A stretch of DNA of 63,769 nt, filler included, from Reclinomonas americana ATCC 50394 (GCA_048213135.1; 5 parts of 4 records of this genome joined end to end with filler, not necessarily neighbours in it); one strand, 5' to 3'; shown: positions 3,839-61,478, counted from the first letter of the whole stretch. Numbers and translations are program-made. The notes: generated by a model not told the origin, from the sequence alone.

Positions 3839-4942
3839 TCACAAGCGATTGCTTGCGTCGGCGAAGCACCGATGCAGAATAACCTCGGCCTCCTCGACCA
3901 CGAAGCAGCGGAGCACCATCTCTGGAAGGCAACGCGAATCTCGCACCTGGTCCCCCTCTGCACCCTGCCGCTGCATCTCCTGCACAGCACGCATGGCCGA
4001 GCGCGCACAATCGACCTCCTCTCGCGCGAGGCAATGAGGAGTAGACCATACCCTCACTGTGCAGTCTGGGCTGCCACTCACAATGTGCTGACCATCGGGA
4101 GAGACGGCAACGTACTCTATCCCTTCGGTGTGCCCCACCAACCGCCGCACCTCCTCACCACTTGCCAGCGACCACACCCGCACTGTCTGGTCCTGACTCC
4201 CGCTGACAATTAGCTCTCCATCGGGAGTAACTGTGACACAGCGCACCTCATCCGCGTGACCCTCCAACCGCCGCACTTCCTCTCCGCTCGCCAGCGACCA
4301 CACTCGCACTGTAAAGTCATCGCCCCCGCTCACGATGCACTGACCATCGGGAGTGACGACGGCAGACCACACATCGCCAGCGTGTCCCTCCAGTCGGCGC
4401 ACCTCCTTCCCACTCGCCAGTGACCACACTCGCACTGTTTCGTCTCCACTCGCACTCACAATGTGCTCGCCATCTGGAGTGACAGCGACCGACAACACGT
4501 ACGCGCGGTGCCCTGAAAGTAGATGCTCCATAGTGCCAGTCGCCAGCGACCACACTCGCACTGAACTATCCCAACTCCCACTAATCACGTGCCGCCCGTT
4601 GGGGGTGACAGCGACCGAGGATACCCAATTAGTGTGCCCCCGCAGCAGTCCCACTTGCTCTCCACTTGCCAGTGCCCACACTCGGACTGTGAAGTCGTCG
4701 CCACCGCTCACAACATGCAGCCCATCAGGAGTGATGGCGACAGCCGATACTCCTGCAGCGCATCCCTCGAGCCGTTGGACTTCCTTTCCGGTCGCCAGCG
4801 ACCACACTCGCAGAGTGCAGACGGCGCTGGCACCGCCAATCACAATGTGATCCGAGGTGACGGTGACACATGATACGACGTCATCGTGACGGAACACGTA
4901 CTTGCATGGGAGAGAAGGAGGAGGAGGAGGAGCGGAGGTCAT
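3839..4942 (-). CDS. Intronless 7-blade WD40 protein with conserved C-terminal helical module (array 1)
   Basis: Uninterrupted ORF starting MTSAPPPPP, repeats of GH..V.SVAVTPDG..VVSG..D.TVRVW, ending RCLPEMVLRCFVVEEAEVILHRCF. Confidence 0.92.
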   Translation of the reverse strand: MTSAPPPPPSLPCKYVFRHDDVVSCVTVTSDHIVIGGASAVCTLRVWSLATGKEVQRLEGCAAGVSAVAITPDGLHVVSGGDDFTVRVWALASGEQVGLLRGHTNWVSSVAVTPNGRHVISGSWDSSVRVWSLATGTMEHLLSGHRAYVLSVAVTPDGEHIVSASGDETVRVWSLASGKEVRRLEGHAGDVWSAVVTPDGQCIVSGGDDFTVRVWSLASGEEVRRLEGHADEVRCVTVTPDGELIVSGSQDQTVRVWSLASGEEVRRLVGHTEGIEYVAVSPDGQHIVSGSPDCTVRVWSTPHCLAREEVDCARSAMRAVQEMQRQGAEGDQVRDSRCLPEMVLRCFVVEEAEVILHRCFADASNRL

Positions 4943-5030
4943 GTGCGCCTGGGCGTATGCGTGAAGCGCGATCGGAAGCGCGTGTGTAATGTCGACTCGT
5001 AATGTCCTCTCTCGCCACACAATGGCGGGC

Positions 5031-5075
5031 GTTTCGAAGTTGTTTCGAAGGCAAGCACCTTGATGTATCACCCTT
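5031..5075 (-). promoter_or_regulatory. Conserved upstream motif of array-1 WD40 genes (copies also at ~6493-6535 and ~7906-7945)
   Basis: GAAGTTGTTTCGAAGGCAAGCAC(C/T)TTG..TATCACC found ~60-130 bp upstream of three ATGs; retained in the third spacer, which is otherwise diverged. Confidence 0.45.
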
Positions 5076-5322
5076 CACCGAAACACGTATTACAATCACA
5101 TGCCGCGCGCGCTTCACTTCAACTATCGCAGTATTCAGCAACCAGCACGAGTATAAACGTCGGCAACGGAGACGAAAAGAGCGAGATGCACATCAGCGCG
5201 TCCATCCACAACCGGCGACGGTGGTCGGCGCTGCAAGGTGTCGATGGACATCACGAGAAGAAAGAGGGACGTACGGAGAAAAGAAAGAAAAAGGCGAGAA
5301 AAACAGACGGGATGCTCGTCCA

Positions 5323-6417
5323 TCAGAACCGGAGACAGTCGTCCGTGGAGCACCGATGAACAACAACCTCCGCCTCCTCGACCACGAAGCAGCGCAGCAC
5401 GATCTCCACCAGACACCGCTGTTCTTCCTCTTCCCGCATCGCCTGCACCGCCCACATGGCCTCCCGCGCACAATCGAGCTCTTGGCGAGCGAGGCCGCAC
5501 GGAGTGGACCACACTCGCACTGTTCCATCCACACAGCCACTGACAATATGCTGGCCATCGGGACTGACGGCAACCGACTGCACTGTGTCGGTGTGCCCCA
5601 CCAACCGCCACACCTCCTCGCCGCTCGCCAGCGACCACACCCGCACAGTCTCGTCGACACTTCCGCTAACAATGAACTCACCATCGGGAGTAACTGTGAC
5701 ACAGTGCACGTCATCCGCGTGACCGTCCATTCGTCGCTCCTCCTCACCGCTCACCAGCGACCACACTCGCACTGTGAAGTCATCGCTCCCACTCACGATG
5801 TGCTGACCATCGGGAGTGATGGCGACAGACCACACGAAGTCAGTGTGTCCCTCCAGTCGGCGCACCTCCTTCCCACTCGCCAGTGACCACACTCGCACTG
5901 TTTCGTCTCCACTCGCACTCACAATGTGCTCGCCATCTGGAGTGACAGCGACAGACAACACACTCATGAGGTGTCCTTCGAGTTGACGCTCACAGTTGCC
6001 AGTCGCCAGCGACCACACTCGCACTGAACTATCCCAACTCCCACTAATCACGTGCCGCCCATTGGGGGTGACAGCGACCGAGGATACCCAATTAGTGTGC
6101 CCCCGCAGCAGTCCCACTTGCTCTCCGCTTGCCAGTACCCACACTCGGACTGTGGAGTCGTCGCCACCGCTCACAACATGCAGCCCATCGGGAGTGACGG
6201 CAACTGATCGCACGACACCAGTGTGTCCCTCCAGCCGGCACACTTTTGCGCCACTCGCCAGTGACCACACTCGCAGAGTGCAGACGGCGCTGGCACCGCC
6301 AATCACAATGTGATCCGAGGTGACAGTGACACAAGGTACGGCGTCATCGTGACGGAACACGTTCTTGCATGGTAGAGACGGAGGAGGAGGAGGAGGAAGA
6401 GAAGGAGCGGAGGCCAT
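5323..6417 (-). CDS. Intronless WD40 protein, same family (array 1)
   Basis: ORF starting MASAPSLPPP, 7 WD repeats, same C-terminal module. Confidence 0.92.
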   Translation of the reverse strand: MASAPSLPPPPPPSLPCKNVFRHDDAVPCVTVTSDHIVIGGASAVCTLRVWSLASGAKVCRLEGHTGVVRSVAVTPDGLHVVSGGDDSTVRVWVLASGEQVGLLRGHTNWVSSVAVTPNGRHVISGSWDSSVRVWSLATGNCERQLEGHLMSVLSVAVTPDGEHIVSASGDETVRVWSLASGKEVRRLEGHTDFVWSVAITPDGQHIVSGSDDFTVRVWSLVSGEEERRMDGHADDVHCVTVTPDGEFIVSGSVDETVRVWSLASGEEVWRLVGHTDTVQSVAVSPDGQHIVSGCVDGTVRVWSTPCGLARQELDCAREAMWAVQAMREEEEQRCLVEIVLRCFVVEEAEVVVHRCSTDDCLRF

Positions 6418-6778
6418 GTGTGTGTGCGTATGCGTGAAGAGCGGCAGTGCGTGTAATGGATCGTGCAATGTCCTCGCCACACAATGGCGGGCGTTTCGAA
6501 GTTGTTTCGAAGGCAAGCACCTTGGTATCACCACCCTTCACCGCAACACGTATTAGAATCACATGCCGCGTTTCACTTCAACTATCGCAGTATTCAGCAA
6601 CCAGCACGAGTATAAACGTCGGCAACGGAGACGAAAAGAGCCAGATGCACATCAGCGCGTCCATCCACAACCGGCGACGGTGGTCGGCGATGCGTCAACG
6701 GACAGCACGAGAAGAAAGAGGGACGTACGGAGATAAGAAAGGCGAGAGCTCGAGATAAACAGACGGGATGCTCGTCCA

Positions 6779-7849
6779 TCACAAGCGATTGCTTGCGTCG
6801 GCGAAGCACCGATGCAGAATAACCTCGGCCTCCTCGACCACGAAGCAGCGCAGCACAATCTCCACCAGACACCGCTGTTCTTCCTTTTTCCGCATCTTCT
6901 GCACCGCCCACATGGCCTCCCGCACACTGTCGAGCTCCAGCCGAGCGAGGCCGCACGGAGTGGACCACACTCGCACTGTTCCATCCACACAGCCACTCAC
7001 AATATGCTGGCCATCGGGACTGACGGCAACCGACTGCACTGTGTCGGTGTGCCCCACCAACCGCCGCACCTCCTCGCCGCTCGCCAGCGACCACACCCGC
7101 ACAGTCTGGTCGACACTCCCGCTCACAATGAACTCACCATTGGGAGTAACTGTGACACAGCGCACCTCATCCGCGTGACCGTCCATTTGTCGCTCCTCCT
7201 CACCGCTCACCAGCGACCACACTCGCACGGAGCAGTCACTGCTCCCACTGACGATATGCTGCTCATCGGGAGTGATGGCGACAGACCACAAGTGATCAGA
7301 GTGTCCCATCAACCGCCGCATGTCGTCGCCAGTTGCAAGTGATCGCACTCGCACTGCGTTGTCGTAATCGCAAGAAGTCACGATATGCTGACCGTCTGCA
7401 GTGACGGCGATCGATGCTACCGATTCGCGGAACTGTCGCACAGGATCTCCACTCGTCAGCGGCCAATCTAGCACTGTCAAATGCCAACTCCCAGTGACCA
7501 CATGCTGACCATCGAGAGTGACGGCAACTGATGTTACATCTCCATCGAGGTCCTCAAACATTCGAATCTCATCTTCAGTCGCCAGTGACCACACACGCAC
7601 GGTCTCGTCGGCGCTCCCACTCACGACGTGCTCACCATCGGGAGTGACGGCAACCGATCGCACGACACCAGTGTGTCCCTCCAGCCGGCACACTTTTGCG
7701 CCACTCGCCAGTGACCACACTCGCACCGTCTTGTCGGCACCGCCACTCACCACGTGTTGCCCGTCGGGAGTGACAGCGACACTGTACACGACGCCACAGT
7801 GACCGCGCAAGCATTTGGACGGAAGGGAAGGGGGAGGCGTGGAGGTCAT
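6779..7849 (-). CDS. Intronless WD40 protein, same family (array 1)
   Basis: ORF starting MTSTPPPSLP, 7 WD repeats (some degenerate), same C-terminal module. Confidence 0.92.
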   Translation of the reverse strand: MTSTPPPSLPSKCLRGHCGVVYSVAVTPDGQHVVSGGADKTVRVWSLASGAKVCRLEGHTGVVRSVAVTPDGEHVVSGSADETVRVWSLATEDEIRMFEDLDGDVTSVAVTLDGQHVVTGSWHLTVLDWPLTSGDPVRQFRESVASIAVTADGQHIVTSCDYDNAVRVRSLATGDDMRRLMGHSDHLWSVAITPDEQHIVSGSSDCSVRVWSLVSGEEERQMDGHADEVRCVTVTPNGEFIVSGSVDQTVRVWSLASGEEVRRLVGHTDTVQSVAVSPDGQHIVSGCVDGTVRVWSTPCGLARLELDSVREAMWAVQKMRKKEEQRCLVEIVLRCFVVEEAEVILHRCFADASNRL

Positions 7850-8259
7850 GTCGGTGCGTGTGTGGACGAGGCAAGGACGATGATGCAGTGTCCTCCGCAC
7901 TCTTGGGAAGTTGTTTCGAAGGCAAGCACTTTGGTATCACCCCACCGCAACGTGTATTACACATGCCTTGCATTACCTCTAAGGGGTCAGAGAGTTTGCA
8001 GCGGTTTGCAACAAGGATTACGATACAGTTCTAGGCGATGGGAGAATGAGCTGGATAAACAGTGATGCCTTCCGACCACAGACATTGGCGAACATCGAAG
8101 AACAGCAGGAAAAGAGAGAAAGGAACGCAATGCGAGACAGACAGCCACCGATGCTCGTCCAACACAACCGGCGACGATCATCAATGAGAGATGCCACAGG
8201 GAAAAGAGAGAGAGAGAGACATACACAGTGGAACGAAAAGGGCCAGCGATGCTCACCCA

Positions 8260-9351
8260 TCAAAAACGGAGCTCGTGATCGTGGTCGCTGCGATGTAGAA
8301 CTACAGCCGCATCCTCGACGATGAAGCAACGCAGCACCATCTCCGGAAGGCATCGCGAATCTCGCACCTCCTCGTTTCCACCTCCCCGTTGCATCTCCTG
8401 CACAGCACGCATGGCCTCCCGCGCACAATCGAGCTCCTGCCAAGCGAGGCCGCACGGAGTGGACCACACTCGCACTGTTCCATCCACACAGCTACTCACA
8501 ATATGATGCCCATCGGGACTGACGGCAACGGACTGTACTGCGTCGGTGTGCCCCACCAACCGCCGCAACTCCTCGCCACTCGCCAGCGACCACAGACGCA
8601 CAGTCTTGTCCTCACTGCCACTCACTATGTACAGACCATCACGAGTGACGGCGACAGACAGTACGGAATCAGTGTGCCCATCCAACACTCGCACTAACTC
8701 TCCACTCGCCAGTGACCACATACACACTATTTGGTCACACGCCCCGCTGACAATGAACTGACCATCGGGAGTGACGGCGACAGAACACACGTAGTCATCG
8801 TGTGCGTTTAACCATCGCAACTCTTCTCCAGTCGCCAGTGACCGCACCCGCACTGTACATGTGCAGTCGTAATCACTTGCAAACACGACATTCTCCCCGT
8901 CGGGAGTGACAACGATGCATGTCGCCGAAGCGCCAAACTGTCGCACCTCCTCACCACTCGCCAGCGACCACACTCGCACTGCGCCATCCCAGCCTCCACT
9001 CACAACATGCTGTCCATCGGGTGTGCCAGCAACAGAACGCACGCTTCCATGGTGGCCCTTCAACAATCGAATCTCTTCTCCACTCGCCAGTGACCACACT
9101 CGCACCGTGCTGCCTGTACCCCCACTCACAACGTGCAGGCCATCGGGAGTGATGGCGACAGAGAGCACTGCATCAGTGTGTCCCTCAAAGCGTTGTATTT
9201 CGCGCCCACTGGCCAGTGACCACACACGCACAGTGAAGTCGGCACCGCCACTCACCACGTGTTGCCCATCGGGAGTGACGGCGACACTGTGCGCGGCACC
9301 GCGGTGGCCACACAAGCGCTTGGATGGGAGGAAATGAGGGACTGCGGACAT
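8260..9351 (-). CDS. Intronless WD40 protein, same family (array 1)
   Basis: 363-aa ORF starting MSAVPHFLPSKRLCGH, 7 WD repeats, same C-terminal module. Confidence 0.92.
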   Translation of the reverse strand: MSAVPHFLPSKRLCGHRGAAHSVAVTPDGQHVVSGGADFTVRVWSLASGREIQRFEGHTDAVLSVAITPDGLHVVSGGTGSTVRVWSLASGEEIRLLKGHHGSVRSVAGTPDGQHVVSGGWDGAVRVWSLASGEEVRQFGASATCIVVTPDGENVVFASDYDCTCTVRVRSLATGEELRWLNAHDDYVCSVAVTPDGQFIVSGACDQIVCMWSLASGELVRVLDGHTDSVLSVAVTRDGLYIVSGSEDKTVRLWSLASGEELRRLVGHTDAVQSVAVSPDGHHIVSSCVDGTVRVWSTPCGLAWQELDCAREAMRAVQEMQRGGGNEEVRDSRCLPEMVLRCFIVEDAAVVLHRSDHDHELRF

Positions 9352-9355
9352 GTGA

Positions 9356-9397
<42 letters not shown>

Positions 9398-9809
9398 GGA
9401 GAGAGAGAAAGTGTGTGTGTGTGTGTGTGTGTGCGTGTATGTGTGTGTGTGTGCGCGTGTGATGGTCAACAGTGTCCTCCAATCTTCGCAACTTCAACTT
9501 GCGACGTGGGCTCCCCCTGTATCATGCATCCGAAAACAGAGACAGCACCTGGCAAGCAGGGGTCAGGCCAGGGATGAGGCGATTCGGTGCTGTTGAGTTG
9601 TACTGTACCTCAGTAGCGAGAATACAAAGATTTCGTTGCCTTCTTGCGTGACTCACAGAAAGCGCTGCAAAGGGGCTCCTCTTGCGCTCTTTTCTCCACC
9701 ACGTAGACGACGCGTTGTTTTCCGGACGATCATCACTCGTTTGCGTTCTGTGGAAGTGGCTGTGGAGGTGCGGTCTCTGCAAAATCGAGCATACAACTGC
9801 ATGTGTATT

Positions 9810-11609: not shown

Positions 11610-11643
<34 letters not shown>

Positions 11644-13526: not shown

Positions 13527-14513
13527 TCACCTCCCTTCCCTCTCTTCCCCCTCTCTTCCCCCTCTCTTCCCCCTCTCTCCCCCTTTTCCCCGCAACTCAT
13601 TCCTCCTCCTCCCCGCCATGGCACACACATCAATCGCCACCACCCGCTGCCTCCCAAACGACGCCTCCGCGTACCGCTCAACATGATCCTCGGGAATCCG
13701 ATAGTTGCGCGGCACCCTGGCACGCACCAATGAGCGCTGCAGCCCGGAAAACACAAGCAAACAAAAGGCGCCTCACTTTTTCACCGTGCGCTGATTGACC
13801 TTGAAGAGCGTCATGTGCGCCTCGAACTTGTACCCCTCATCGACAGCCACTCCACTCTGACTGAGATGCCTCGTCAACGCCACTGCGCAGTCGGCAACAT
13901 AAGAAGCGCGTAACTCCACGCAAGCAGCTTACCCATCGCGCACTCAACTCTGCATCCGCGACAACCACCTATGCGACTCGTCTTCCTCGACCGCCGCAAA
14001 CAGCACTCGTCCCTTCCCAAACGATCGCGTTCCTCGTAAATGCAACTCGCCACCGCCTGCAGCTGGCACAGGCGGCACCTCAAACGCATCCAGTGCCTGC
14101 TGCACCTCCGCGATCCATTGCTCCACTGGTGAAGGTGGCGCAAAGAGCAAATTCAGTGAGAAGTGAAAGGCGGCCTCGTCGATGCGCAGGTGGTTGAGGG
14201 TGCGCGTGGTCAGACACAGATCGTCTTGCGCAGCGCTGAGTGCGCTGACAAGGGCGCGGTTGTCGACTCGAACGGAGAGGAAATGCGTGGGAGGCACTCG
14301 TGCGCGCGACGAGGAAGCAGAGGCCGCGAAGGAGGAGAAGACGCGCGGGACGGTGTTGAGCACGGGCAACATGAATCGTGCGGCGGTTTCGGCGTATTCC
14401 TCCTCGAGAGGCGAGGCTGCTGCTGCAGCAGTGGGCGACTTTTCGTGGTCTTGTTGGTCGTCTGGTGCAGTGGGAGCGACGGGAACGACGATGCGGCGGC
14501 GACGTGGAGGCAT
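13527..14513 (-). CDS. AKAP7-like 2H phosphoesterase (2'-5' phosphodiesterase/LigT fold); 3' end uncertain
   Basis: Spliced product has PTHFLSVRV, the two 2H motifs FHFSL and AHMTL, and FGRQRVVAIDVCAM, which match the AKAP7 core pattern. Confidence 0.75.
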
Positions 14514-15158
14514 TGGGTGTGATGAGAATATGTCCTGCGGAATAGTAATCAACTTCACTGATCCATGCACAGCAATGAGCATCTACTAGTGATCGCCAAC
14601 AAGTCTCGTGTGCCCTCCTACAAATAAAACTTTTATCGACGTTGAGAAACCATACATAGTCAATTCTGGACACATTTACAGCCTCAAGGCCTTTGCTGGC
14701 TTGCATGCGAGAGAGTGTATCTGGCTCAGGCCGTACATGCACACGCAGAGGCTATGCGGTGTCATTTGTTGCTCATTCTGTGCATTCTTATATCGACGTC
14801 GACAGCAATTGCAAGCGACGTCGTGCAGCAACGTCGAGGCTATCCATCCTCCTCACAGCCTCCTGCTCATCAACCACCGTGCTCGCACATTGCGCACGCT
14901 GAAGACTATCATGATGGGTCGCAACGGCGGCTCAGAACTCACCGTCAAGCCATCGACGTTGCGAATTTCGACCACTGGAAGGAAACAAAGCTCTGTCGCA
15001 CATCGCTGCACGTGTTCCTTCACTTGTTACTACGCCCTCCGCAGCCACACAAGCTCCACTCTTCCACTGCGCGCCTCACACTCCAAGAAAAAAGCGCGGG
15101 ACAAAAAACTGACCGTTACTTTTCCAAGTCACAGTCACTCAATCGCGCACCAAGTGCA

Positions 15159-15571: not shown

Positions 15572-15615
<44 letters not shown>

Positions 15616-30798: not shown

Positions 30799-30903
30799 NN
30801 NNNNNNNNNNNNNNNNNNNNNNNNNNNNNNNNNNNNNNNNNNCGTGTGTGTGTGTGTGTGTGTGCGGCGATCCTTGTCGACCGACGTTGAATTCTGATGA
30901 TAG

Positions 30904-38673: not shown

Positions 38674-39406
38674 GGAGGAAGAGGACGGAAGTGAGAGGTG
38701 AATGCGACGAGCATGATATTGCTGCATATCTGTATCTATCTGCTCCGGTGTGTGTGGCTGGTGGGAGTGAGAGAGGAAGAGATTTCACAGAGTCAGTGGC
38801 GTTTGCTGGTTTCCATGGTCGATGGCGCGAGAATGCAGTAGCACAGTGCACCAGAGAGATGGGATCCATGTATGTGAGTCTCCCTCTGCGCCGCTGATCG
38901 GTGTGCTTGTAGGGGTGAAGAGAAACATAAGAGCCGTACTCTCATGACGAGCACTGAAAGCTGTCGAAACGTTGACTGACCTCAGGCGCCTTGAGAGAGG
39001 GAGCAGTCGCGTGGTTGTGGGGTAGCTTGTTCGCTGTGAAGAGACACAGATGTCCAGTGCAACCGCAACTGTTGGTCCGCGATCGGGACCAGAACCATGG
39101 TCGGGACCCCAATGCGATAACATGTGTGGCCAGAGGCTGTTCATCGGAGTGCTGCTGCTCAGTGTGGGTGTCCAGAGAAAGAAAGAGAGACACGCACGGC
39201 AGGTGTTGACGGGCGGCTGTAGTTTACAACGCACGAGAAACCTCGCCTCTCTGTTTCGTCCCCTTCCCTCCTCTCATCACAAATGCTTCATGCTGGTCGG
39301 ATCAACGGAACTTTAGCTGCACGTCGCTCTTGGACGGAGACAAGCACAGATGGCCTCTCGAGCACCACCACCACGCCCTCACTCAACAACAACTGCTCCG
39401 CTCACA

Positions 39407-45400: not shown

Positions 45401-46465
45401 CGCTGTCAAGTGGAGCACGACCAGAGGTGAACTGTGACGCCTGTGTACAGTCTACGCGTGATGTGTCTCACAGGGGGATGGGGGGTTGTAGCACGCGTTG
45501 AGGAGAATGTGGTGGTGAGAGGGAGAGAAATGGTGGTGGAGGAAGCAGACCAAGAGGAGGAGGATTCAACGAGCGGTGGCGAGGAGGATGAGTTCCGTGG
45601 GAATAAGGTAGGCCCATGGATGGCAAGCGCAGAGTGCATGTGTGTGGCTGCAATTTCATGTGTGTGTTCACAGCAGCGGCGCAAAAGTGGTCCTGCGACG
45701 CTGAGCGAAGCGGAGCTACTGGTGTTGAAGAACCTGCTCGTTGCGTATTGTTGAACACTGTCGTTAGGATTGCCGAACTGCTGTCATGAACTCATCCATC
45801 CACACACTTGCGAATAGGAATGCAACAGGAAAAGGGTGCTGGTGAAGGCGTTTGGTCTCTTGGCTGCGGTGGTGAAGGGGTCCACAGTGCTTTGTCATCA
45901 GCGCGTTCTCATGCAGCTTGCCTGTGACGAGTGCGGCATGCCAGCGGAGGGACCCGGAAGTCCATCGTCCGCAGTCATTTCTGCATTTGGCAGTAAGATT
46001 TCTTATTCTGCGAATTCCATACGGCACACGGCTGTCAAGTCGATGGAAGGGGTGCTGGAGAGTGTAAGCAACCTCATCGAGGTGGGTTTCTCGCTCGGCA
46101 ATGACGAGACAAATAGCTGACTCGCATTCTTCATGAGGGCAGAAATCCGGTCTTCGAGGAGCTGCGCTGGCGGATGCTATCAGGAGGCCACTGATTGCGA
46201 TTGACGAAAGTGGTCACTCTAAGGTCTGTGGGTGGACTTGATTCTCTGCGATGCTGGCCTATGATGAAGTTTACGATTGCGCCTCCTGTTGCAGATATCA
46301 GCAAGGTTGTTGCAGAGGAAAGGCACTCCGGATTTATTGCGACCAGTTGTCGCACAGGCTATACACGCCCTTCACAACCATCCCGGTCTGGTGGCCGCTC
46401 TGCTCCGAAACGGTTGCCTTTCGAAGGCGGAGATTGTGCGTGCCGTCGCGCGTGGCAAAGGGTAA
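39407..46465 (+). CDS. Giant tandem-domain protein B (5 units), paralog of A
   Basis: Ser-rich N-terminus, then core exons at about 41010, 42021, 43435, 44751 and 45818. Exon at 41335 is nearly identical to the one at 30904. Start and end are provisional. Confidence 0.7.
43822..43833. other. Artificial assembly linker
   Basis: TTAATTAATTAA within an N run. Confidence 0.95.
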
Positions 46466-46496
46466 TGAGCAGGATGTGGAGGGGAGAGGATGATAA

Positions 46497-47745
46497 TCAT
46501 CGTCGGCAAGGGATTTGTGGACATTTGTCGCATTATTGGAATGTGGTGAATGAAGCGTTTTGTTTGTTTTTACACACATGTGTTGTGTTGATGTTTTGGA
46601 TACGGTTGAACTTTGTCACAGTGACATCTCCCGTGAGCAACGCCATTATCAGCGACAACCACTCAACAACAACAACAACAAATTCATTTGCTAACAAACA
46701 TGTACAAGCAACAGCTGTCTTGATGACCAAGGTCAATCGTATCCAAAACATCAACACAGACGTCGACACCAATCTTGAGGCAGCAGCAGGTTCCTCGTGT
46801 GTGTGTGTTCGCTCTCGGAGCTCCGAACAAGTCGAGAACTGCGATCTTCACCGCATAAGCGTGGTTGCAATTGACCAGTGGATTTGACGCACTTGCATAG
46901 ACNNNNNNNNNNNNNNNNNNNNNNNNNNNNNNNNNNNNNNNNNNNNNNNNNNNNNNNNNNNNNNNNNNNNNNNNNNNNNNNNNNNNNNNNNNNNNNNNNN
47001 NNNNNNNNNNNNNNNNNNNNNNNNNNNNNNNNNNNNNNNNNNNNNNNNNNNNNNNNNNNNNNNNNNNNNNNNNNNNNNNNNNNNNNNNNNNNNNNNNNNN
47101 NNNNNNNNNNNNNNNNNNNNNNNNNNNNNNNNNNNNNNNNNNNNNNNNNNNNNNNNNNNNNNNNNNNNNNNNNNNNNNNNNNNNNNNNNNNNNNNNNNNN
47201 NNNNNNNNNNNNNNNNNNNNNNNNNNNNNNNNNNNNNNNNNNNNNNNNNNNNNNNNNNNNNNNNNNNNNNNNNNNNNNNNNNNNNNNNNNNNNNNNNNNN
47301 NNNNNNNNNNNNNNNNNNNNNNNNNNNNNNNNNNNNNNNNNNNNNNNNNNNNNNNNNNNNNNNNNNNNNNNNNNNNNNNNNNNNNNNNNNNNNNNNNNNN
47401 NNNNNNNNNNNNNNNNNNNNNNNNNNNNNNNNNNNNNNNNNNNNNNNNNNNNNNNNNNNNNNNNNNNNNNNNNNNNNNNNNNNNNNNNNNNNNNNNNNNN
47501 NNNNNNNNNNNNNNNNNNNNNNNNNNNNNNNNNNNNNNNNNGCATAGCGTTTTCTGCGATCGTACGCGGCACATCGAATTCGGGGAAAGGCCAGTAGCCA
47601 GCTGCAGCTGCACGTTGCCTGGCTTTGTTGGTTATTCCTATGTGTTCTGACACCAACACCTCTTGCTATCTTTCTGCATTCCTTTTTTGGAATTCGGCGT
47701 CAAATCCATGCTTGTCGCGAGCCGTGGTTTCTCTTGCTGAAACGC
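46497..47745. repeat. Composite of dispersed repeat families A, B and C; possible degenerate non-autonomous mobile element
   Basis: A at 46497-46570, inverted B fragment at 46583-46620, B at 46680-47600 (gap inside), C at 47658-47745. Confidence 0.65.
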
Positions 47746-51100: not shown

Positions 51101-53067
51101 ACGCAGCATGCAGTCCAACCTGCAAATGCCACCCAATGCTCGCGACGCCATTCGTATGAATGACCTGCTGGAGGACGAAGGCGAGGGTCGGTCAGGCAAG
51201 CCTCGCGGCAGCGCACGAGAAGGTTTCACGCACTTTGCTTGACATTATATGATAATGACCGCATGCTCATGTTTATTTTCTCGCGAATCAGTGGCCACCA
51301 TGGATCAACCGCTGAAGGCTGCTGCGATGCGAATCCACCGGCGTGGCGAGGGTGGTGGCAGTCCGAGTGCCGGCGGCGGTAAGAGCGGTCGCAAGCGGCC
51401 CAGCAGCGCCACTTTTCGCTCGTTGCGCTCCCCTTCTTCTTCCTCCTCCCTCCCTCCCTCCCTCGCGCGTGCCGCCTCTCAATCCTGCGTTCATGCAATG
51501 CAGACCCACGGCCACGGCACACGCGGTGACGGCCACGACTGCCACCGCATCGGCCGCTCCTCCGTCTGGCAAGTCCGGCACTGGGCGGCAGCGGCCAAGC
51601 TCGGCGCCTGTGCGGCGGTCAGCCAGCACGAATGGACCTGCCAGCCCCCAAGAGAAAAAGGCCAACGAGCTGGCTGCCGCCACCGACAAGCGCACTGGAC
51701 GTGTGCAGTCGAAGGACTGGGAGGCGTACGAGCAGGACATGGCCAAGTGGTTCTTCTCGGAGATTGTCAACAACATTGTGTCGAAGCGACTGTTCGCCAC
51801 CGACGACCTCTCGCAACTGTTCGCCAACTGCGACTACCAGGCGGTGAAGATTGCAACAAAGAGCGGACTCGACCCGCAAGTGCTGCTGGATGTCGTCAAG
51901 CAGCTACGTGCGGAATTCAACGTTCCGGAGCCACTGGAGGAGGCCATGTTGCAAGTCGGCAACACGGACAGCGGTAGGAGGCAACCGGCCGGTGGCGCTG
52001 CGTCGGTGAGTCCAATGAGCAAGTTCTATGTGGGGATGATTTTCATGTTTCCTTACTGATCGACGCAGAAATCCAAGACCGATGCCTCGAAGAAGCTGCG
52101 CGACAGTTCCGAGTCGCTCTCTCCCGCCCAGAAGGGCAAGAGGGGGCAGTCCGACGCGCGCAAGAATCCGTACGTGGACGAAGACGAGGATGAAGAAGAG
52201 GAGGACGAGGACGCTGCCATGGATCGTGTCTTTGGCCGACTCGACGCTGTGCGTGAGAAGCGCGAGGGTACCAAGCCTCCTGCTGCTTTCTCGGGCGTTG
52301 TCAAGAAGCAGGCAGCGACGGGAGCGGCAGTGGATGAGGAGGACGAGGCGATGGATCGCGTCTTCGGCCGGCTTGACGCCGTGCGCGCCAAGAGGCAGGG
52401 CACTGAGCCTCCTGCGTCGTTCACGACGAATGTCAGGAAGCAGCCGATGACCTCATCAGCTCTGGAGCCGGAGGATGAAGATGAGGATGCCGCGATGGAT
52501 CGCGTGTTTGGTCGACTCGACGCAGTGCGCTCACAGAGAGAGGGCACCAAGGCTCCCTCTGCCCCCGCTCCCGCTCGTGCTCCGGCTGCCGCCTCGGGCA
52601 GCCGGAAGAAGCCTGCTCTCCAGCCCGAGGATGAAGATGAGGATGCCGCGATGGATCGCGTGTTTGGTCGACTCGACGCGGTGCGCTCGCAGAGGGAGGG
52701 CACCAAGGCTCCCTCTGCTCCCGCTCCCGCTCGTGCTCCGGCTGCCGCCTCGGGCAGTCGGAAGAAGCCGGCTCTCCAGCCCGAGGATGAAGATGAGGAT
52801 GCCGCAATGGATCGCGTGTTTGGTCGACTCGACGCGGTGCGGTCGCAGAGGGAGGGCACCAAGGCTCCTTCCGCTCCCGCTCCCGCGCGTGCTCCGGCTG
52901 CTGCCTCTGGCAGCCGGAAGAAGCCTACGCCCGAGCCGGAGGATGAGGACGAGGATGCAGCGATGGACCGTGTGTTCGGCAGACTCGATGCTGTGCGCTC
53001 GAAGAGGGAAGGCACCAAGGCTCCCTCTGCTCCTGCTCCCGCTCGTGCTCCGGCTGCTGCCTCCGGT
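48131..53067 (+). CDS. SPATA7: SPATA7-like ciliary protein with a C-terminal tandem repeat; 3' truncated
   Basis: Spliced MLIREHMRYHVARVSTAKSSVDAHTP resembles the SPATA7 N-terminal motif. FFSEIVNNIVSKRLFATDDLSQLF...LLDVVKQLRAEF resembles the second conserved SPATA7 block. Confidence 0.65.
50677..50765. repeat. 24-bp minisatellite (~4 copies), intronic
   Basis: (T/C)ACCCTCGCCCCTTTCCCTCCCTT in tandem. Confidence 0.8.
52200..53067 (+). repeat. Coding tandem repeat, 156 bp / 52 aa, at least 6 units
   Basis: MDRVFGRLDAVR ATGs at 52219, 52351, 52495, 52651, 52807 and 52963. Confidence 0.92.
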
Positions 53068-53123: not shown

Positions 53124-53167
53124 NNNNNNNNNNNNNNNNNNNNNNNNNNNNNNNNNNNNNNNNNNNN

Positions 53168-53236
<69 letters not shown>

Positions 53237-54479: not shown

Positions 54480-55583
54480 ATGTCGTCTGCAACTCCTCCC
54501 TCCCTCCCTCACACGTGCTTGCGTGGACACGAGGCAGAAGTGGTGTCGGTCGCCGTCACTCCCAATGGCCAGTTTATTGTGAGCGGGAGTCTTGACAAGA
54601 CAGTGCGTGTGTGGTCCCTGGCGAGTGGGGAGGAAGTGCGTCGGTTTGAGGGACACACTCAAGCTTTGTGGTCTGTCGCCGTCACTCCTGATGGACAGCA
54701 CGTGGTGAGCGGGAGCGCTGACACCACTGTGCGAGTGTGGTCGCTGGCGGGCGGGGAAGAAGTGCGGCGGCTGGAGGGACACACCAAGGGAGTGACGTCT
54801 GTCGCTCTCACTCCTGATGGTCAGTTTGTTGTGAGTGGGAGTGGAGACTGGACGGTGCGAGTGTGGTCACTGGCGAGTGGCGAGGAGGTGTGTCGGTTGA
54901 AGGGACACACTCGTGTGGTGCGCTCTGTCGCTGTCACTCCCGACGGTCGGCACGTGGTGAGTGGGAGTCTGGATCACACGGTGCGAGTGTGGTCACTGGC
55001 AAGTGGAGAGACGGTGTTGCGGCTGGAGGGACACATGACGTGGGTGACCTCGGTTGCCGTGTCACTCGATGGTCAGCATATTGTGAGTGGCAGCTTCGAC
55101 TGGACTGTACGAATGTGGTCCATCGCAAGTGGCGAAGAAGTGCGACGATTCGAGGGCTACACTGGTCCGGCATATGCTGTTGCCGTGTCTCCCGACAATC
55201 GGCACATGGTGAGCGGAGATCGAAACAGGTACATTCGTGTGTGGTCGCTAGCTGCTGGCCAGGAAGTGCGGCGGCTAAAGGGGCATGCCGCTGATGTGTC
55301 TTCTGTTGCCTTCACTCCCGATGGTGAGCTCATTGTGAGTGGTAGTGACGACAAGACTATCCGCGTGTGGTCGACACCGCGTGGTCTTGCGCGGCAGGAG
55401 CTCCAGTGTGCGCGACTGGCGATGCAGGCTGTACAGGCGATGCAGCGTGAGAGCTATGATGATGACGACGACGACAAAGAGGATCCACGTTGTTTGGTGG
55501 AGATTGTGATGCGATGCTTCTTGGTGGAGGAGGCGGAGGTTCTTGTTTATCGGTGTTTCGCCGATGACAGTCTCCTGCTTTGA
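54480..55583 (+). CDS. Intronless WD40 protein, same family (array 2)
   Basis: Starts MSSATPPSLPH, 7 WD repeats, ends DPRCLVEIVMRCFLVEEAEVLVYRCFADDSLLL. Confidence 0.93.
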   Translation: MSSATPPSLPHTCLRGHEAEVVSVAVTPNGQFIVSGSLDKTVRVWSLASGEEVRRFEGHTQALWSVAVTPDGQHVVSGSADTTVRVWSLAGGEEVRRLEGHTKGVTSVALTPDGQFVVSGSGDWTVRVWSLASGEEVCRLKGHTRVVRSVAVTPDGRHVVSGSLDHTVRVWSLASGETVLRLEGHMTWVTSVAVSLDGQHIVSGSFDWTVRMWSIASGEEVRRFEGYTGPAYAVAVSPDNRHMVSGDRNRYIRVWSLAAGQEVRRLKGHAADVSSVAFTPDGELIVSGSDDKTIRVWSTPRGLARQELQCARLAMQAVQAMQRESYDDDDDDKEDPRCLVEIVMRCFLVEEAEVLVYRCFADDSLLL

Positions 55584-56224
55584 TGAAGATGGAGAGACGC
55601 GCCCGGGGACTCTCTCTCTCTCTCTCCCTCTCNNNNNNNNNNNNNNNNNNNNNNNNNNNNNNNNNNNNNNNNNNNNNNNNNNNNNNNNNNNNNNNNNNNN
55701 NNNNNNNNNNNNNNNNNNNNNNNNNNNNNNNNNNNNNNNNNNNNNNNNNNNNNNNNNNNNNNNNNNNNNNNNNNNNNNNNNNNNNNNNNNNNNNNNNNNN
55801 NNNNNNNNNNNNNNNNNNNNNNNNNNNNNNNNNNNNNNNNNNNNNNNNNNNNNNNNNNNNNNNNNNNNNNNNNNNNNNNNNNNNNNNNNNNNNNNNNNNN
55901 NNNNNNNNNNNNNNNNNNNNNNNNNNNNNNNNNNNNNNNNNNNNNNNNNNNNNNNNNNNNNNNNNNNNNNNNNNNNNNNNNNNNNNNNNNNNNNNNNNNN
56001 NNNNNNNNNNNNNNNNNNNNNNNNNNNNNNNNNNNNNNNNNNNNNNNNNNNNNNNNNNNNNNNNNNNNNNNNNNNNNNNNNNNNNNNNNNNNNNNNNNNN
56101 NNNNNNNNNNNNNNNNNNNNNNNNNNNNNNNNNNNNNNNNNNNNNNNNNNNNNNNNNNNNNNNNNNNNNNNNNNNNNNNNNNNNNNNNNNNNNNNNNNNN
56201 NNNNNNNNNNNNNNNNNNNNNNNN

Positions 56225-56695
56225 GGGAGTGATCGCGACAGAGAATACCGAATCTGAATGTCCCTTCAGCTGTCGCTCTTCCTCGCCACTCGACAATGAG
56301 CACACTCGTATCGTGAGGTCCGGATTGCCACTCCCGCTCACAACGCGCTGCCCATCGGGAGTGACGACGACGCACCACACTACACTTTCGAAGTGTCCCT
56401 CCAGCCGCAGCACTTCCTTGCCACTCGCCAGTGACCACACACGCACCGTGGAGTCACCACTCCCACTGACCACATGCCTCCCGTCGGGAGTGACAGTGAC
56501 AGACCACACTGGATAAGTGTGCCCCTCAAACCGACGCACTTCTTCTCCACTCGCCAGCGACCACACTCGCACCGTCTGGTCCACGCTGCCGCTCACAACA
56601 TACTGACCATCGGGCGTGACAGCAACAGAAGTCACATCACTCTCGTGTCCACGCAAGCACTTGTGCGGGAGGGAGGGAGGAGTTGCGGATGACAT
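56225..56695 (-). CDS. WD40 family gene, 5' half on an inverted contig (probably joins 57350-58002)
   Basis: Starts MSSATPPSLPHKCLRGH, about 3.5 repeats, ends VAITP at the gap. Confidence 0.85.
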
Positions 56696-57349
56696 TTCGT
56701 GCGTGAGAGAAGGGCGATGAGAATTGAGGGGACGCCGACGTTGGACTTCATCATACCGCTGAGCAGCGACTGCATTCGCGCTCCTTTTTAATGGTCGAAG
56801 GAAAGATAGAAACAGACGATAAGCTGACAGAAGGGCAATTAAAGTGCAAAGCGGGGCCGCAGAAGAAAGCGGCGGAAACAACGGAGTGGGAGGGAGGGAG
56901 AGTGAGAGTGAGAGGGAGGAGGGAGAGGGGAGAGGGAGAGGGAGAGGGAGATAGAGAGGGAGATAGAGAGGGAGAGGGAGGAGGGAGAGGGAGAGAGAGA
57001 GAGAGACGGTCCCGGGCGCGTCTCTCCATCTTCATACAAAGCAGGAGACTGTCANNNNNNNNNNNNNNNNNNNNNNNNNNNNNNNNNNNNNNNNNNNNNN
57101 NNNNNNNNNNNNNNNNNNNNNNNNNNNNNNNNNNNNNNNNNNNNNNNNNNNNNNNNNNNNNNNNNNNNNNNNNNNNNNNNNNNNNNNNNNNNNNNNNNNN
57201 NNNNNNNNNNNNNNNNNNNNNNNNNNNNNNNNNNNNNNNNNNNNNNNNNNNNNNNNNNNNNNNNNNNNNNNNNNNNNNNNNNNNNNNNNNNNNNNNNNNN
57301 NNNNNNNNNNNNNNNNNNNNNNNNNNNNNNNNNNNNNNNNNNNNNNNNN

Positions 57350-58002
57350 GACGGTCAGCACGTTGTTTCCGGGAGTTTTGACGAGACAGTGCGAGTGTGG
57401 TCACTGGCAAGCGGCGAGGAAGTACGGCGGTTTGAGTGCCCAGGAGTGTCAATCGCCGTCAGTCCAGATGGTCGGCTGCTCCTCTGTGGGAGTGACGACG
57501 GCACTGTGCAAGTGCGGTCGCTGGCGAGCGGCGAGGAGTTGCGACGGTTTGTGGCACACGCAATGAGGGTGTCGTCTGTTGTTGTTACTCCCGGTGGCCT
57601 GCATGTGGTCACCGGGAGTGAGGACATGACAGTGCGGGTGTGGTCACTGGCCACAGGGGAGGAAGTGCGACGGCTGGAGGGGCACACCGAGAGTGTGTAT
57701 TCGATTACCCTCACTCCAGATGGCGAGCACCTTATAAGTGGCAGTGACGACCAGACAGTGCGAGTGTGGTCAATGCCGCGTGCGCTTGCTCGGCAGGAAC
57801 TTCAGTGTGCGCGTCTGGCCATGCAGGCTGTACAGGTGATNNNNNNNNNNNNNNNNNNNNGCAGCGAGAGAGCGACGACGACGATGATGAGGAGGAGGAG
57901 GATCCACGTTGTTTGGTGGAGATTGTGTTGCGGTGCTTCTTGGTGGAGGATGCAGAGGTTGTTGTTTATCGGTGTTTCGCCGAGGACAGTCTGCTGCTGT
58001 AA
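57350..58002 (+). CDS. WD40 family gene, 3' half
   Basis: Begins DGQHVVSGSFDETVRVW, ends RCFAEDSLLL*. Confidence 0.85.
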
Positions 58003-58290
58003 CCTGCTTTGGAATGGATACGGGGAGGGGGAGTGGCGCTCTCTCCCTATCTCCCACCCTCCGTCCCTTCCACTCTCGTGCCTTTTTTGTCTTGTCTGCC
58101 TCATCATTTCGGATTCATTTTCATCGGCACTCTGCATTTCTTTCGTTTGCGATTTTGCCGACTTCTCACCTGTTTCTCGCTTTCCTTCGCCCAGTAAAAG
58201 AAGTGTGCATTGTTGACAAGGTGCACTCTGACGACGTTAAACGTGTCCTTTCCTTTTCAGGACGCGCTCTCCCACACGCACACATCCGTC

Positions 58291-59388
58291 ATGTCATCTG
58301 CACCTCCTCCCTCCCTCCCTCACAAGTGTTTGCATGGACACGATGCTGGAGTGATGTCCATCGCTGTCACCCCAGACGGGCAGCACTTTGTCACCGGATG
58401 TTCCGACAAGACAGTGCGAGTGTGGTCGCTGACTACAGGCGAGGAAGTGCGACGTTTGGAGGGACACACTGGTTGGGTGCAGTCTGTGGCCGTCACTCCC
58501 GATGGTCAGCATGTGGTGAGCGCGGGTGACGACACTACAGTGCGAGTGTGGTCCCTGTCGACAGGAGAAGAAGTGCGACTGCTCAGGGGTCACCTTGAGT
58601 CGGTTTGGTCGCTCGCCATCACTCCCGATGGGACGCGTGTTGTGAGTGGAGGCGTGGGCATGGATGTGCGAGTGTGGTCTCTGGCGAGTGGAGACCTGGT
58701 GCACCTGTTGGAGGGACACACGAACTGGGTGCGCTCTATCGCTGTCACTCCCGACGGTCAGCACGCTGTGAGTGGGAGTGACGACGAGACAGTGAGAGTG
58801 TGGTCCCTGGCGAGTGGCAAGGAAGTGCAACGACTTGTGGGTCACGAGGACTGGGCAATGGCGGTGGCTGTCACGCCCAATGGCCTACATGTGGTGAGTG
58901 GGAGTTCGGATTACACAGTGCGAGTGTGGTCGCTGTCGAGCGGGGAGGAGGTGCGACAGATGGAGAGCAGCACTTTCTGGTCGTCTGTTGCCGTCTCGCC
59001 CGATGGTCAGTACGTGGTCAGTGGTGGTGGCGACAAGACAGTGCGGGTGTGGTCGCTAGCTACTGGCCAGGAAGTGCGGCGATTGGAAGGGCACACCGAG
59101 TCTGTGAATTCAGTTGCGTTCACTCCCGATGGTGAGCGCATTCTGAGCGGCAGTGGCGACAAGACAGTGCGCTTGTGGTCGACGCCGCGTGGTCTTGCAC
59201 GGCAGGAGCTCCAGTGTGCGCGCCTGGCCATGGAGGCTGTACAGGCGATGCAGCGAGAGAAGGATGACGACGACGACGAGGAGGAAGATCCGCGCTGCTT
59301 GGCGGAGATTGTGATGCGGTGCTTCTTGGTGGAGGAGGCGGAAGTTGTTGTTTATCGGTGTTTCGCCGACAACAGTCTCCTGCTGTAA
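58291..59388 (+). CDS. Intronless WD40 protein, same family (array 2)
   Basis: Complete ORF with 7 repeats plus the C-terminal module. Confidence 0.93.
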   Translation: MSSAPPPSLPHKCLHGHDAGVMSIAVTPDGQHFVTGCSDKTVRVWSLTTGEEVRRLEGHTGWVQSVAVTPDGQHVVSAGDDTTVRVWSLSTGEEVRLLRGHLESVWSLAITPDGTRVVSGGVGMDVRVWSLASGDLVHLLEGHTNWVRSIAVTPDGQHAVSGSDDETVRVWSLASGKEVQRLVGHEDWAMAVAVTPNGLHVVSGSSDYTVRVWSLSSGEEVRQMESSTFWSSVAVSPDGQYVVSGGGDKTVRVWSLATGQEVRRLEGHTESVNSVAFTPDGERILSGSGDKTVRLWSTPRGLARQELQCARLAMEAVQAMQREKDDDDDEEEDPRCLAEIVMRCFLVEEAEVVVYRCFADNSLLL

Positions 59389-59664
59389 CCTGCCTGAGGG
59401 GGAGTGGTGCTTTCTCCCTCTCGCACTCTCTCTGGATCCACTCCGCTGTGTATGCCTCTTTCTTCGTCATCGCCACCTTGTATTTTCTGATGTCGACGTC
59501 GTCAGCTTCTCATGCGTTTGTCTCCTTCTTCCTGCATTAAAGAGTGTGACTGCAGTTGCTGCGGTGTGTCGATGAGGAGCTATAGGTGTGGCGAAGTTGA
59601 ATGGCGGCGCCCCTTCACGGCAAGGACACACATACGCACACACGCCCGCACGCACACATCCGTC

Positions 59665-60771
59665 ATGTCGTCAGCAACTCCTCCCTCCCTCCCTCACAAG
59701 TCCTTACATGGACACGAGGCACAAGTGGCGTCTGTCGCCGTCTCTCCCAATGGCCAGTTTATTGTGAGCGGAAGCCTTGACACGACAGTGCGTGTGTGGT
59801 CACTGGCAACAGGCGAGGAAGTGCGTCGGTTTGAGGGACACACTCATGGTGTGTGGTCTGTCGCCGTCACTCCCGATGGACAGCATGTGGTGAGCGCGAG
59901 TGAAGACTGCACAGTGCGAGTGTGGTCACTGGCGAGTGGCGAGCAGGTGCGGCGGCTGGAGGGACACACTGACAGAGTGACGTCTGTCGCCGTTACGCCT
60001 GACAGTCAGTTTGCTGTGAGCGGGAGTGGAGACGAAACGGTGCGTGTATGGTCACTGGTGAGTGGCGAGGAGGTGCAACGGCTGTACGGACACACTCGCT
60101 TGGTGCGGTCAGTTGCTATCACTCCTGATGGCCGGCACGTTGTGAGTGGGAGTTATGACGAGACAGTGAGAATGTGGTCGCTGGCCAGTGGAGAGGAGGT
60201 GTTGCGGTTGCAGGGGCACATTACATATGTGTGCTCGGTTGCCGTGTCACCCGATGGTCAGCATATTGTGAGTGGCAGTCATGACTGGACAGTGCGCGTG
60301 TGGTCCATCGCAAGTGGCAAGGAAGTGCGACGGTTTCAGGGCTACACTGGTCCAGCATATGCTGTCACCGTCTCCCCGAATAGTCAGCACGTGTTGAGTG
60401 GGTATCGTGACGACAAGATTCGTGTATGGTCAATGGCGAGTGGAGAAGAACTGTGGCGACTGGAGGGACACGCTGGTGATGTGGCATCTGTTGCCGTCAC
60501 TCCCGATGGTCAGCACATTATTAGCGGGAGTGAGGACAGGACTGTGCGTGTGTGGTCGATGCCGCGTGCGCTTGCTCGGCAGGAACTCCAATGTGCGCGA
60601 CTGGCGATGCAGGCTGTACAGGCGATGCAGCGAGGGAGCGACGACGACGACGAGGAGGAGGAGGAGGAGGATCCGCGCTGCTTGGTGGAGATTGTGTTGC
60701 GATGCTTCTTGGTGGAGGAGGCGGAGGTTATTGTTTATCGGCGTTTTACCGATGCCAGTCTCCTGCTTTGA
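59665..60771 (+). CDS. Intronless WD40 protein, same family (array 2)
   Basis: Complete ORF; most similar to the gene at 54480-55583. Confidence 0.93.
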   Translation: MSSATPPSLPHKSLHGHEAQVASVAVSPNGQFIVSGSLDTTVRVWSLATGEEVRRFEGHTHGVWSVAVTPDGQHVVSASEDCTVRVWSLASGEQVRRLEGHTDRVTSVAVTPDSQFAVSGSGDETVRVWSLVSGEEVQRLYGHTRLVRSVAITPDGRHVVSGSYDETVRMWSLASGEEVLRLQGHITYVCSVAVSPDGQHIVSGSHDWTVRVWSIASGKEVRRFQGYTGPAYAVTVSPNSQHVLSGYRDDKIRVWSMASGEELWRLEGHAGDVASVAVTPDGQHIISGSEDRTVRVWSMPRALARQELQCARLAMQAVQAMQRGSDDDDEEEEEEDPRCLVEIVLRCFLVEEAEVIVYRRFTDASLLL

Positions 60772-61057
60772 TGAAGATGGAGAGACGCGCCCGGGGACTC
60801 CCTCTCTCTCTCCCTCTCTCCCTCTCCCTCTCCCTCTCCCTCTCCATCTGTTGTGGCTCCTCTTTTTTCTGCGGCGCCACTTTGTTCTTTGATTACCTTC
60901 TGTCAGCTTCTCGTCTGTTTTCATCATCTCTTCCCCCATGCATTAAAGCGAATGCGACAACAGCCAACGTTGCGACGTCGGTTGGTAATGAAATCCATGT
61001 CCCCTGCCAAAGGACACAGTCTCACACACGACACGCACGCACACACGCTCACTTCTC

Positions 61058-61478
61058 ATGTCGTCTGCAGCTCCTCCCTCCCTCCCTCACAAATGTTTGC
61101 GTGGACACCAGGCACAAGTGACTTCTGTCGCCGTCACTCCCGATGGCCAGTTTGTTGTGAGTGGCTGTGTGGACGAGATGGTGCGAGTGGTGTCACTGAT
61201 GACTGGAGAAGAAGTGCGACGTATGGAGGGACACACTGGCTGGGTGCGATCTGTCGCCATCACTCCCAATGGTGAATTCGTCGTGAGCGGGGGAGACGAC
61301 GGCACAGTGCGAGTTTGGTCGCTGGTGAGTGGCGAGGAGGTTCGACGACTCTCAGGGCATGCTGAGGCAGTCTTCTCACTCGCCATTACTCCCGATGGGA
61401 GGCATGTTGTGAGTGGAGGCATGGACAGTGATGTGCGAGTGTGGTCACTGGCGAGTGACAAGGATGTGCGGCGTATGG
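61058..61478 (+). CDS. WD40 family gene, 5' part (truncated by join)
   Basis: Starts MSSAAPPSLPHKCLRGH, followed by 3 repeats. Confidence 0.88.

Follow-up and report, generated by a model that had tools for sequence, protein, structure and literature searches.

What might be the work of a protein family that keeps its propeller scaffold nearly constant, varies a few residues of each blade and ends every copy in the same short tail? The question is raised by a 63,769-nucleotide (nt) stretch of DNA (filler included; hereafter the window) from the jakobid Reclinomonas americana ATCC 50394 (GCA_048213135.1), analysed as a draft scaffold containing 27 N runs and 4731 N in total. Two arrays of genes in it encode a WD40 propeller joined to a C-terminal tail, and a tblastn search with one member as the query located ten loci, four of them in array A (3839-9351, minus strand) and six in array B (54480-61477). 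A first-pass annotation, prepared by a model from the sequence, had recognised the family and put it at about nine genes; the family stands, and its number is revised to ten. Seven of the ten copies are complete, uninterrupted open reading frames (ORFs) of 356-368 amino acids (aa), in agreement with the earlier description of the genes as intronless, and the other three are cut by N runs. The complete proteins are 58-79% identical to the first member. A pattern of this kind is far beyond chance. As to function, the best-supported mechanism is a set of variable binders coupled to one constant module, a reading we hold with moderate confidence, and the evidence that carries it is a variable propeller face together with a constant tail under purifying selection.

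The layout is the same from copy to copy: a short Pro-rich start, seven WD40 blades of 42 aa each and a tail of 61-71 aa (~65 aa), much as the annotation had described it, and it was found in all seven complete proteins, whose tails can be aligned. Each of these proteins begins M-S/T-S-A-...P-P-S-L-P, with ~12 residues ahead of blade 1, and each matches WD40 (PF00400) in 5-7 stretches at expect values (E) of 2e-63 to 3.7e-83; the remaining Pfam matches are to overlapping generic beta-propeller families and are diagnostic of no single orthologue. AlphaFold2, run on the seven-sequence alignment, gave 28 strands arranged as seven blades of four, with a mean predicted local distance difference test score (pLDDT) of 84.9, rising above 90 over the propeller, and a predicted TM-score (pTM) of 0.81. 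By sequence match and by this predicted closed propeller, the proteins belong to the WD40 beta-propeller superfamily. In WD40 topology the N-terminal strand usually closes the ring by completing the last blade, and the Pro-rich S-L-P segment, which aligns with the strand-D part of the repeat unit, would by analogy be that strand. The number of blades is fixed at seven, and the high internal conservation of the repeats noted earlier is confirmed, blade-to-blade identity inside one protein (blades 2-7) averaging 57.7% at the amino acid and 65.4% at the nucleotide level. The proteins are probably cytosolic; reading of the sequences, for which no predictor was used, showed neither signal peptide nor membrane segment.

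Variation within the blades is concentrated at four places. With the proteins divided into 42-residue units, 49 in all, we found that unit positions 15, 17, 33 and 35 (alignment columns 15, 17, 33 and 38) have an entropy of 3.59-3.67 bits and accept 15-16 residue types, against an entropy below ~1.1 bits for V16 and D34, which sit between the members of the two variable pairs, and for most of the blade core. Mean pairwise identity is 67% over the scaffold (35 positions) and falls to 8.5% at the four variable positions, of which a protein with its seven blades has 28. Applied to the model, DSSP assigns strands to unit positions 16-21, 27-32 and 36-41, which puts the variable residues immediately ahead of strand A or at its beginning, and to either side of the turn from strand B to strand C; they are thus in the D-A and B-C loops or next to them. 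In WD40 propellers the top face, which binds ligands, is made of these loops, and the hypervariable residues are predicted to lie on it. Their composition is also unusual, with Trp accounting for 22 of 184 residues at the variable positions and 4 of 1598 at scaffold positions (the Trp of the WD dipeptide left out), an enrichment of ~50-fold in counts that are not phylogenetically independent; Trp occurs in 10 of the 48 array-blade-position groups. A Trp-rich composition fits a contact or binding surface better than it fits unconstrained sites.

The rest of the protein is held under a quite different regime. Ratios of nonsynonymous to synonymous change (omega), obtained by the Nei-Gojobori method for all 21 pairings of the complete genes, are 0.17-0.34 in the scaffold and 0.13-0.49 in the tail. 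Scaffold and tail are therefore under purifying selection, from which it follows that the genes are functional and not decaying, and the constancy that had been claimed for the tail holds at the level of selection.

The tail begins directly after strand C of blade 7 (W-S-T-P) and, by standard propeller topology, would leave the propeller on the side away from the variable loops. Its conserved first helix (G-L-A-R-Q-E-L...A-M-x-A-V-Q-x-M) is joined by an acidic, variable linker of ~8-18 residues to a second conserved segment (R-C-L-x-E-I/M-V-L/M-R-C-F-x-V-E-E-A-E-V...R). A model of the tail by itself, built from ten sequences, is an antiparallel alpha-hairpin with helices at 3-29 and 42-64 (mean pLDDT 81.7), and nine columns are invariant across ten tails, two very divergent proteins included. 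The alignment shows in helix 1 an a/d heptad whose small residues line one face, and in helix 2 hydrophobic residues on most sides. Two helices by themselves could not bury the second, and the tail should therefore dock onto something constant, be it a common partner, another copy or its own propeller. Pfam returned no match for any of three tails tested at E<=10, the tail profile found nothing significant among PDB sequences (best E 0.56), and a search of the ESM Atlas with the tail gave no usable match. With the tail model, Foldseek found no match in the PDB at E<=0.001, and the best VIA-align hits (Z 8.2) were unrelated helical hairpins, below the level that is meaningful for helical models. 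On sequence and model together the tail is a predicted alpha-hairpin with no relative in Pfam, in the PDB or by fold, and we take it to be novel and previously undescribed.

Three further leads on the tail were dropped. Helix 2 of the copy B1 tail (55488-55547; R-C-L-x-E-I-V-x-R-C-F-L-V-E-E-x-x-V) was likened to the C-terminal helix of ribosomal protein eL34, a likeness that covers 19 residues (PDB 3jbn and 8tpu) at E 1.6 and 7.8, no better than chance. A C-terminus resembling a type 1 peroxisomal targeting signal (PTS1) was rejected on the grounds that the last three residues vary among copies (NRL, LRF, LLL), and a zinc site on the grounds that a single Cys is invariant across the ten tails.

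The ten copies, together with one of the spacers between them, are as follows.

3839-4942, minus strand: A1, complete intronless ORF of 367 aa with Pro-rich start and seven WD40 blades; tail 3842-4045
4943-5322, minus strand: spacer upstream of A1, near-identical to the spacer upstream of A2 (6418-6778)
5323-6417, minus strand: A2, complete ORF of 364 aa, a mosaic of A1-like and A3-like blades; tail 5326-5508
6779-7849, minus strand: A3, complete ORF of 356 aa, blades 3-4 degenerate with the GH dipeptide gone and an indel; tail 6782-6964
8260-9351, minus strand: A4, complete ORF of 363 aa; tail 8263-8463
54480-55583, plus strand: B1, complete ORF of 367 aa from the conserved MSSA start; tail 55371-55580
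56225-56695, minus strand: B2, N-terminal 157 aa (start and ~3.5 blades), cut by the N run 55633-56224
57350-57999, plus strand: B3, C-terminal part (~4 blades and tail), beginning at the N run 57055-57349
58291-59388, plus strand: B4, complete ORF of 365 aa; tail 59179-59385
59665-60771, plus strand: B5, complete ORF of 368 aa from the conserved MSSA start (open from 59512); tail 60556-60768
61058-61477, plus strand: B6, N-terminal 140 aa (start and ~3 blades), cut by the N run 61479-61522

For B1 an in-frame ATG upstream, at 54420, is also a possible start, and the B3 tail is interrupted by a run of 20 N (57841-57860) that leaves the pieces 57770-57835 and 57862-57999. B2 is the sole minus-strand copy of array B; its orientation is uncertain because it sits on a short piece, of 830 nt, flanked by two N runs, and the inversion may be a scaffolding artefact.

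The arrays carry clear marks of how they have grown. Start-to-start distances in array A are 1475, 1432 and 1502 nt, which bears out the ~1.47-kb period reported earlier. A1 and A2 are preceded by near-identical spacers, which the spacer ahead of A3 resembles in part only, and it follows that whole gene-plus-spacer units have been duplicated. Superimposed on this is a mosaicism at the level of single blades. A1 and A2 share 94% nucleotide identity in blade 1 and 98% in blade 3 against only 76% in blades 2 and 7; A2 and A3 share 94% in blade 6 and 98% in blade 7 against 69% in blade 1 and 61% in blades 3-4; and A4 matches both A2 and A3 at 92-94% in blade 7 against ~62-82% in the other blades. 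Such a pattern is what recombination or gene conversion leaves behind when neighbouring genes exchange tracts the size of a blade. Blades of the same gene are 65.4% identical in nucleotides, different blades of different genes 65.8% and the same blade of different genes 70.1%. There is thus no repeat-wide homogenisation, and exchange was seen only between equivalent blades of neighbouring genes. We also observed long (CT)n and (CA)n tracts directly ahead of the A4 start codon (9352-9480), and pyrimidine-rich and CA-rich tracts upstream of the ATG of each of the other WD gene copies; they could be promoter signals, RNA-processing signals or mere microsatellites.

To follow the tail outside the window, a hidden Markov model (HMM) was built from seven window tails and scored against all 1,835,955,588 representative proteins at a cut-off of E<=0.001, and three proteins matched. 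The first, P0002 (E 3.9e-25), is a 116-aa Reclinomonas americana protein in EukProt derived from an expressed sequence tag (EST; source name EC795383.1); it spans the last blade and a half and the tail, and its best match in the window is A4 (69.9% over 113 aa). At least one family member is accordingly transcribed in Reclinomonas americana. The other two, P0003 (394 aa) and P0004 (381 aa), come from assembled contigs and carry the same tail on divergent, irregular and degenerate WD propellers that are 22-28% identical to the window proteins. Further searches added no relative: a word-based search with the tail region in proteins of near length gave 27 candidates, none of which scored; the tail profile, set against the longer proteins of a 5.8-billion-protein collection with 8000 candidates scored, returned only P0003 and P0004 again; and 68 tail-pattern matches in Joint Genome Institute (JGI) metagenome contigs and 16 in IMG/VR viral contigs included no relative. 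The only named organism with a relative of the tail is a jakobid, Reclinomonas americana. Judged by these sequence matches, the tail is a real and older module that has been joined to different propellers and is restricted to a barely sampled lineage. With three matches in a collection of that size, the family is not a conserved housekeeping WD40 protein; a match of that kind was among the findings that the first-pass annotation had named as overturning its interpretation. Within the limited collection of literature covered, searches for reports on jakobid or Reclinomonas americana WD40 families listed none that describes this family. Gcp1-3, which are Pex7-like WD40 proteins of eukaryotes with a mitochondrial type II secretion system, jakobids included, were set aside by their description as conserved single orthologues unlike a tandem family (PMC8134430).

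Taken together, a lineage-restricted family of small seven-bladed propellers appears to be built in the manner of binders of differing specificity. Its beta-sheet scaffold stays near the WD40 consensus, and the 28 predicted top-face positions vary almost freely between blades and between paralogues, presenting a variable face that may bind diverse ligands. The constant hairpin tail, on the opposite face to the variable loops, would act as the coupling module. The arrays grow by duplication of gene plus spacer, with blade-sized segments swapped between neighbours.

How far do the variable positions themselves speak for binding? Variability alone is not proof of a recognition repertoire, because in WD40 repeats at large no positions are less constrained than these four. 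Substitutions were counted in 23 independent pairs of living blades, and in the nine closest pairs taken alone. Over all 23 pairs the proportion of nonsynonymous differences (pN) was 0.48 at the four sites against 0.11 in the scaffold, and of the ~74.5 nonsynonymous differences in the nine closest pairs, 30.5 fall on the four codons, which make up 9.5% of the unit. Relative to the proportion of synonymous differences (pS) in the scaffold, pN at the four sites reaches 1.49 (23 pairs; Fisher p 5e-5) and 2.07 (nine closest; Fisher p 8e-4), a ratio biased upward by the choice of sites for their variability and of pairs by their scaffold identity. Relative to their own pS the four sites give 0.77 (23 pairs) and 0.82 (nine closest), a ratio biased downward by multiple hits within codons, and the excess of nonsynonymous change is not significant (binomial p 0.7-0.9). 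The hypervariable positions evolve at or above the neutral rate, which suggests diversifying selection without establishing it.

The general laxity of these positions, the non-significant ratio to their own pS and the upward bias of the more favourable one all weigh against variable binders coupled to a constant module. Further weight on that side comes from the degenerate blades, 3-4 in A3 and A4 and 6 in B1 and B5, and from the full-length model, in which tail helix 1 is moderately confident and the second half of the tail falls below a pLDDT of 50. It also should be considered that the transcript support comes from an EST of a ~70%-identical homologue, not from the window loci themselves.

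Comparison with known systems places these proteins more closely. The nearest sensor design is the WD arm of the fungal HNWD/NWD NOD-like receptors (NLRs), HET-D, HET-E and HET-R of Podospora anserina, with which the first-pass annotation had also drawn a parallel; yet the window proteins are not members of the HNWD family, because they have no NACHT or effector domain, a fixed number of repeats and no repeat-wide concerted evolution. By comparison with the fungal study (PMC1805685), both groups have 42-residue WD repeats that are unusually conserved internally, the usual repeat identity in other WD proteins being 10-20%, and both are multigene families that swap repeat-sized segments between members. 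The same study describes codons 7, 9, 25 and 27 of the HET-D/HET-E repeats as under strong positive selection, acting in pairs around the purified codons 8 and 26 and mapping to the protein-protein interaction surface (PMC1805685). The four variable positions have the same 2-16-2 spacing in both (15/17/33/35 here, 7/9/25/27 there), and we infer from the spacing that they are equivalent. In its extent, its place in the loops and its spacing, the variability resembles the sensor type that the annotation had cited from fungi.

The differences are no less definite. No NACHT, NB-ARC or effector domain was found, all listed Pfam matches being to WD40 or beta-propeller families and the ~12 residues ahead of blade 1 being all that precedes the propeller, and the earlier conclusion that these are not NLRs is upheld; the window proteins, without HET or NACHT domain, are a propeller and a C-terminal hairpin only. 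Repeats are fixed at seven here, whereas in the fungal proteins they are variable and number 10 or more. Repeat-wide homogenisation and concerted evolution occur there and are absent here, positive selection is reported there and no more than suggested here, and the genes here are tightly tandem and reside in a jakobid-type protist, not in a fungus. Among solved structures the best propeller matches are 2ymu_A (E 8.7e-157), a 'WD-40 repeat protein', followed by Tako8 (1.4e-76) and PkwA (5yzv; 2.7e-72), with WRAP-T also matched; 2ymu and PkwA are highly repetitive bacterial proteins, Tako8 and WRAP-T designed consensus propellers. All of these share near-consensus, internally similar blades with the window proteins, but none has the tail, the alignments ending at about residue 299 of 367. 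Because designed proteins score like natural ones, this likeness reflects closeness to the consensus and bears on neither ancestry nor horizontal transfer.

Of the other explanations the one that survives best is an ordinary lineage-specific expansion of paralogues, for instance of cytoskeletal or flagellar adaptors, in which relaxed constraint or subfunctionalisation would account for the variability and the tail would be a structural extension. We consider it unlikely. It would agree with the omega of ~1 at the variable sites measured against their own synonymous rate, with the several degenerate blades and with the fixed number of repeats; the near-equal blade identity within and between genes, which speaks against concerted evolution of the fungal kind, also suits it, and the nearest recognisable neighbour gene in the window encodes a dynein heavy chain. 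The ~50-fold enrichment of Trp would, however, be unexpected at unconstrained sites, and purifying selection on scaffold and tail with no decay, the maintenance of at least ten copies in two arrays and the presence of the tail on very different propellers all argue against such an expansion.

Self-association of the tails, by which hairpins would combine into a four-helix bundle or oligomer and so make the proteins multivalent, possibly with mixed paralogues, is rather doubtful and would in any case be compatible with variable binders on a constant module. The heptad of helix 1 with small residues on one face points in this direction, as does a helix 2 whose hydrophobic faces a lone hairpin cannot bury, but the propeller or a foreign partner could just as well cover the same hydrophobic surface.

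Substrate receptors of cullin-RING or other ubiquitin ligases, in which the propeller would pick the substrate and the tail would dock the adaptor, were also suggested by the first-pass annotation, and we judge them improbable. WSB1/2, FBXW and DCAF/DWD proteins have in common with the window proteins the layout of a propeller plus a short constant helical element, here under purifying selection, and it is the layout alone that favours this role; their docking elements were searched for and not found, the tail being unmatched sequence in a generic hairpin fold, no better matched than common helical hairpins. At E<=10 none of the three tails tested gave a Pfam match to SOCS_box, F-box or U-box, and of the motifs of the two SOCS-box parts, BC box and Cul5 box, neither a BC-box-like pattern nor LPxP occurs in any tail. 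No F-box was present among the Pfam matches listed, LPxE[ILVM] is absent, and an N-terminal F-box of ~40-50 residues would have only the ~12 residues before blade 1 to occupy. The DWD motif, described as 16 residues ending in W/Y-D/E-x-R/K (PMC5749748), was found in none of the ten window proteins, and neither was WDxR; the blades end in V-R-V-W-S-L-A.

Finally, collapsed or mis-scaffolded repeats or pseudogenes are highly improbable. In their favour are the 27 N runs of the draft scaffold, by which three of ten copies are cut; against them stand seven distinct complete ORFs at 58-79% identity, an omega far below 1 for both scaffold and tail, and transcription of a homologue in Reclinomonas americana.

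Other features of the window may be recorded here. The dynein heavy chain gene (AAA_9 and D6 P-loop region) lies at 61579-63768 on the plus strand, in at least two frames and with unmatched insertions; the best 120 of 180 matches to its fragment are 28-45% identical, none of them from a close named relative. The interruptions are probably short introns, or else assembly errors or frameshifts, whereas the WD genes are uninterrupted. Between the WD40 arrays, at 30900-46900 on the plus strand, lies a third tandemly repeated family, some dozen units long and repeating every ~1.07-1.27 kb (repeat groups D6, D8, D10, D11, D15-D18 and D20). Its unit has an acidic run and the segments Q-C-N-R-K-K-V...F-G-I-M-A-P and K-S-x-L-R-G-A-A-L spread over several frames, and it represents either intron-containing genes or one long repetitive gene; its ORFs of at least 110 aa have no Pfam match at 1e-5, and one of them gave no usable ESM Atlas match. 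An ORF at 13947-14582 on the minus strand has a weak match to the AKAP7 2'5' RNA ligase-like family (PF10469, E 2.4e-06, 28 bits against a cut-off of 24.4). A 156-nt tandem repeat (D12) at 52303-53066, in at least four copies at 89-95% identity, lies within long ORFs of both strands and ends at an N run. Apparent inverted repeats at 55610-56224 and 39689-40303 (99-100%) were discarded as an artefact of N runs matching N runs.

What, then, does the family mean for the biology of its host? Conserved WD repeats with hypervariable contacts have so far been known mainly as the sensor arms of fungal NLRs and related bacterial proteins. New here is the same sensor design as a free-standing propeller, multiplied in tandem and fused to a constant two-helix module. 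A role in non-self recognition or immunity, as the first-pass annotation had proposed, is not supported by what the sequence analysis yields, and we regard with considerable reserve the idea that a deep-branching eukaryote has here an innate recognition repertoire free of NOD domains, whose propellers would each sense a different ligand, foreign or variable, for example from prey bacteria, viruses or conspecifics, and signal through the hairpin to a shared effector or assembly. Were it true, the hypervariable WD sensor of fungal and bacterial NLRs would also work detached from the nucleotide-binding switch. If the copies do bind different ligands, an early-branching eukaryote would have a binding repertoire of new architecture, and the tail would be a new interaction domain. 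If they are not different binders, they would still be natural near-consensus WD40 scaffolds with variable faces, of interest to binder design.

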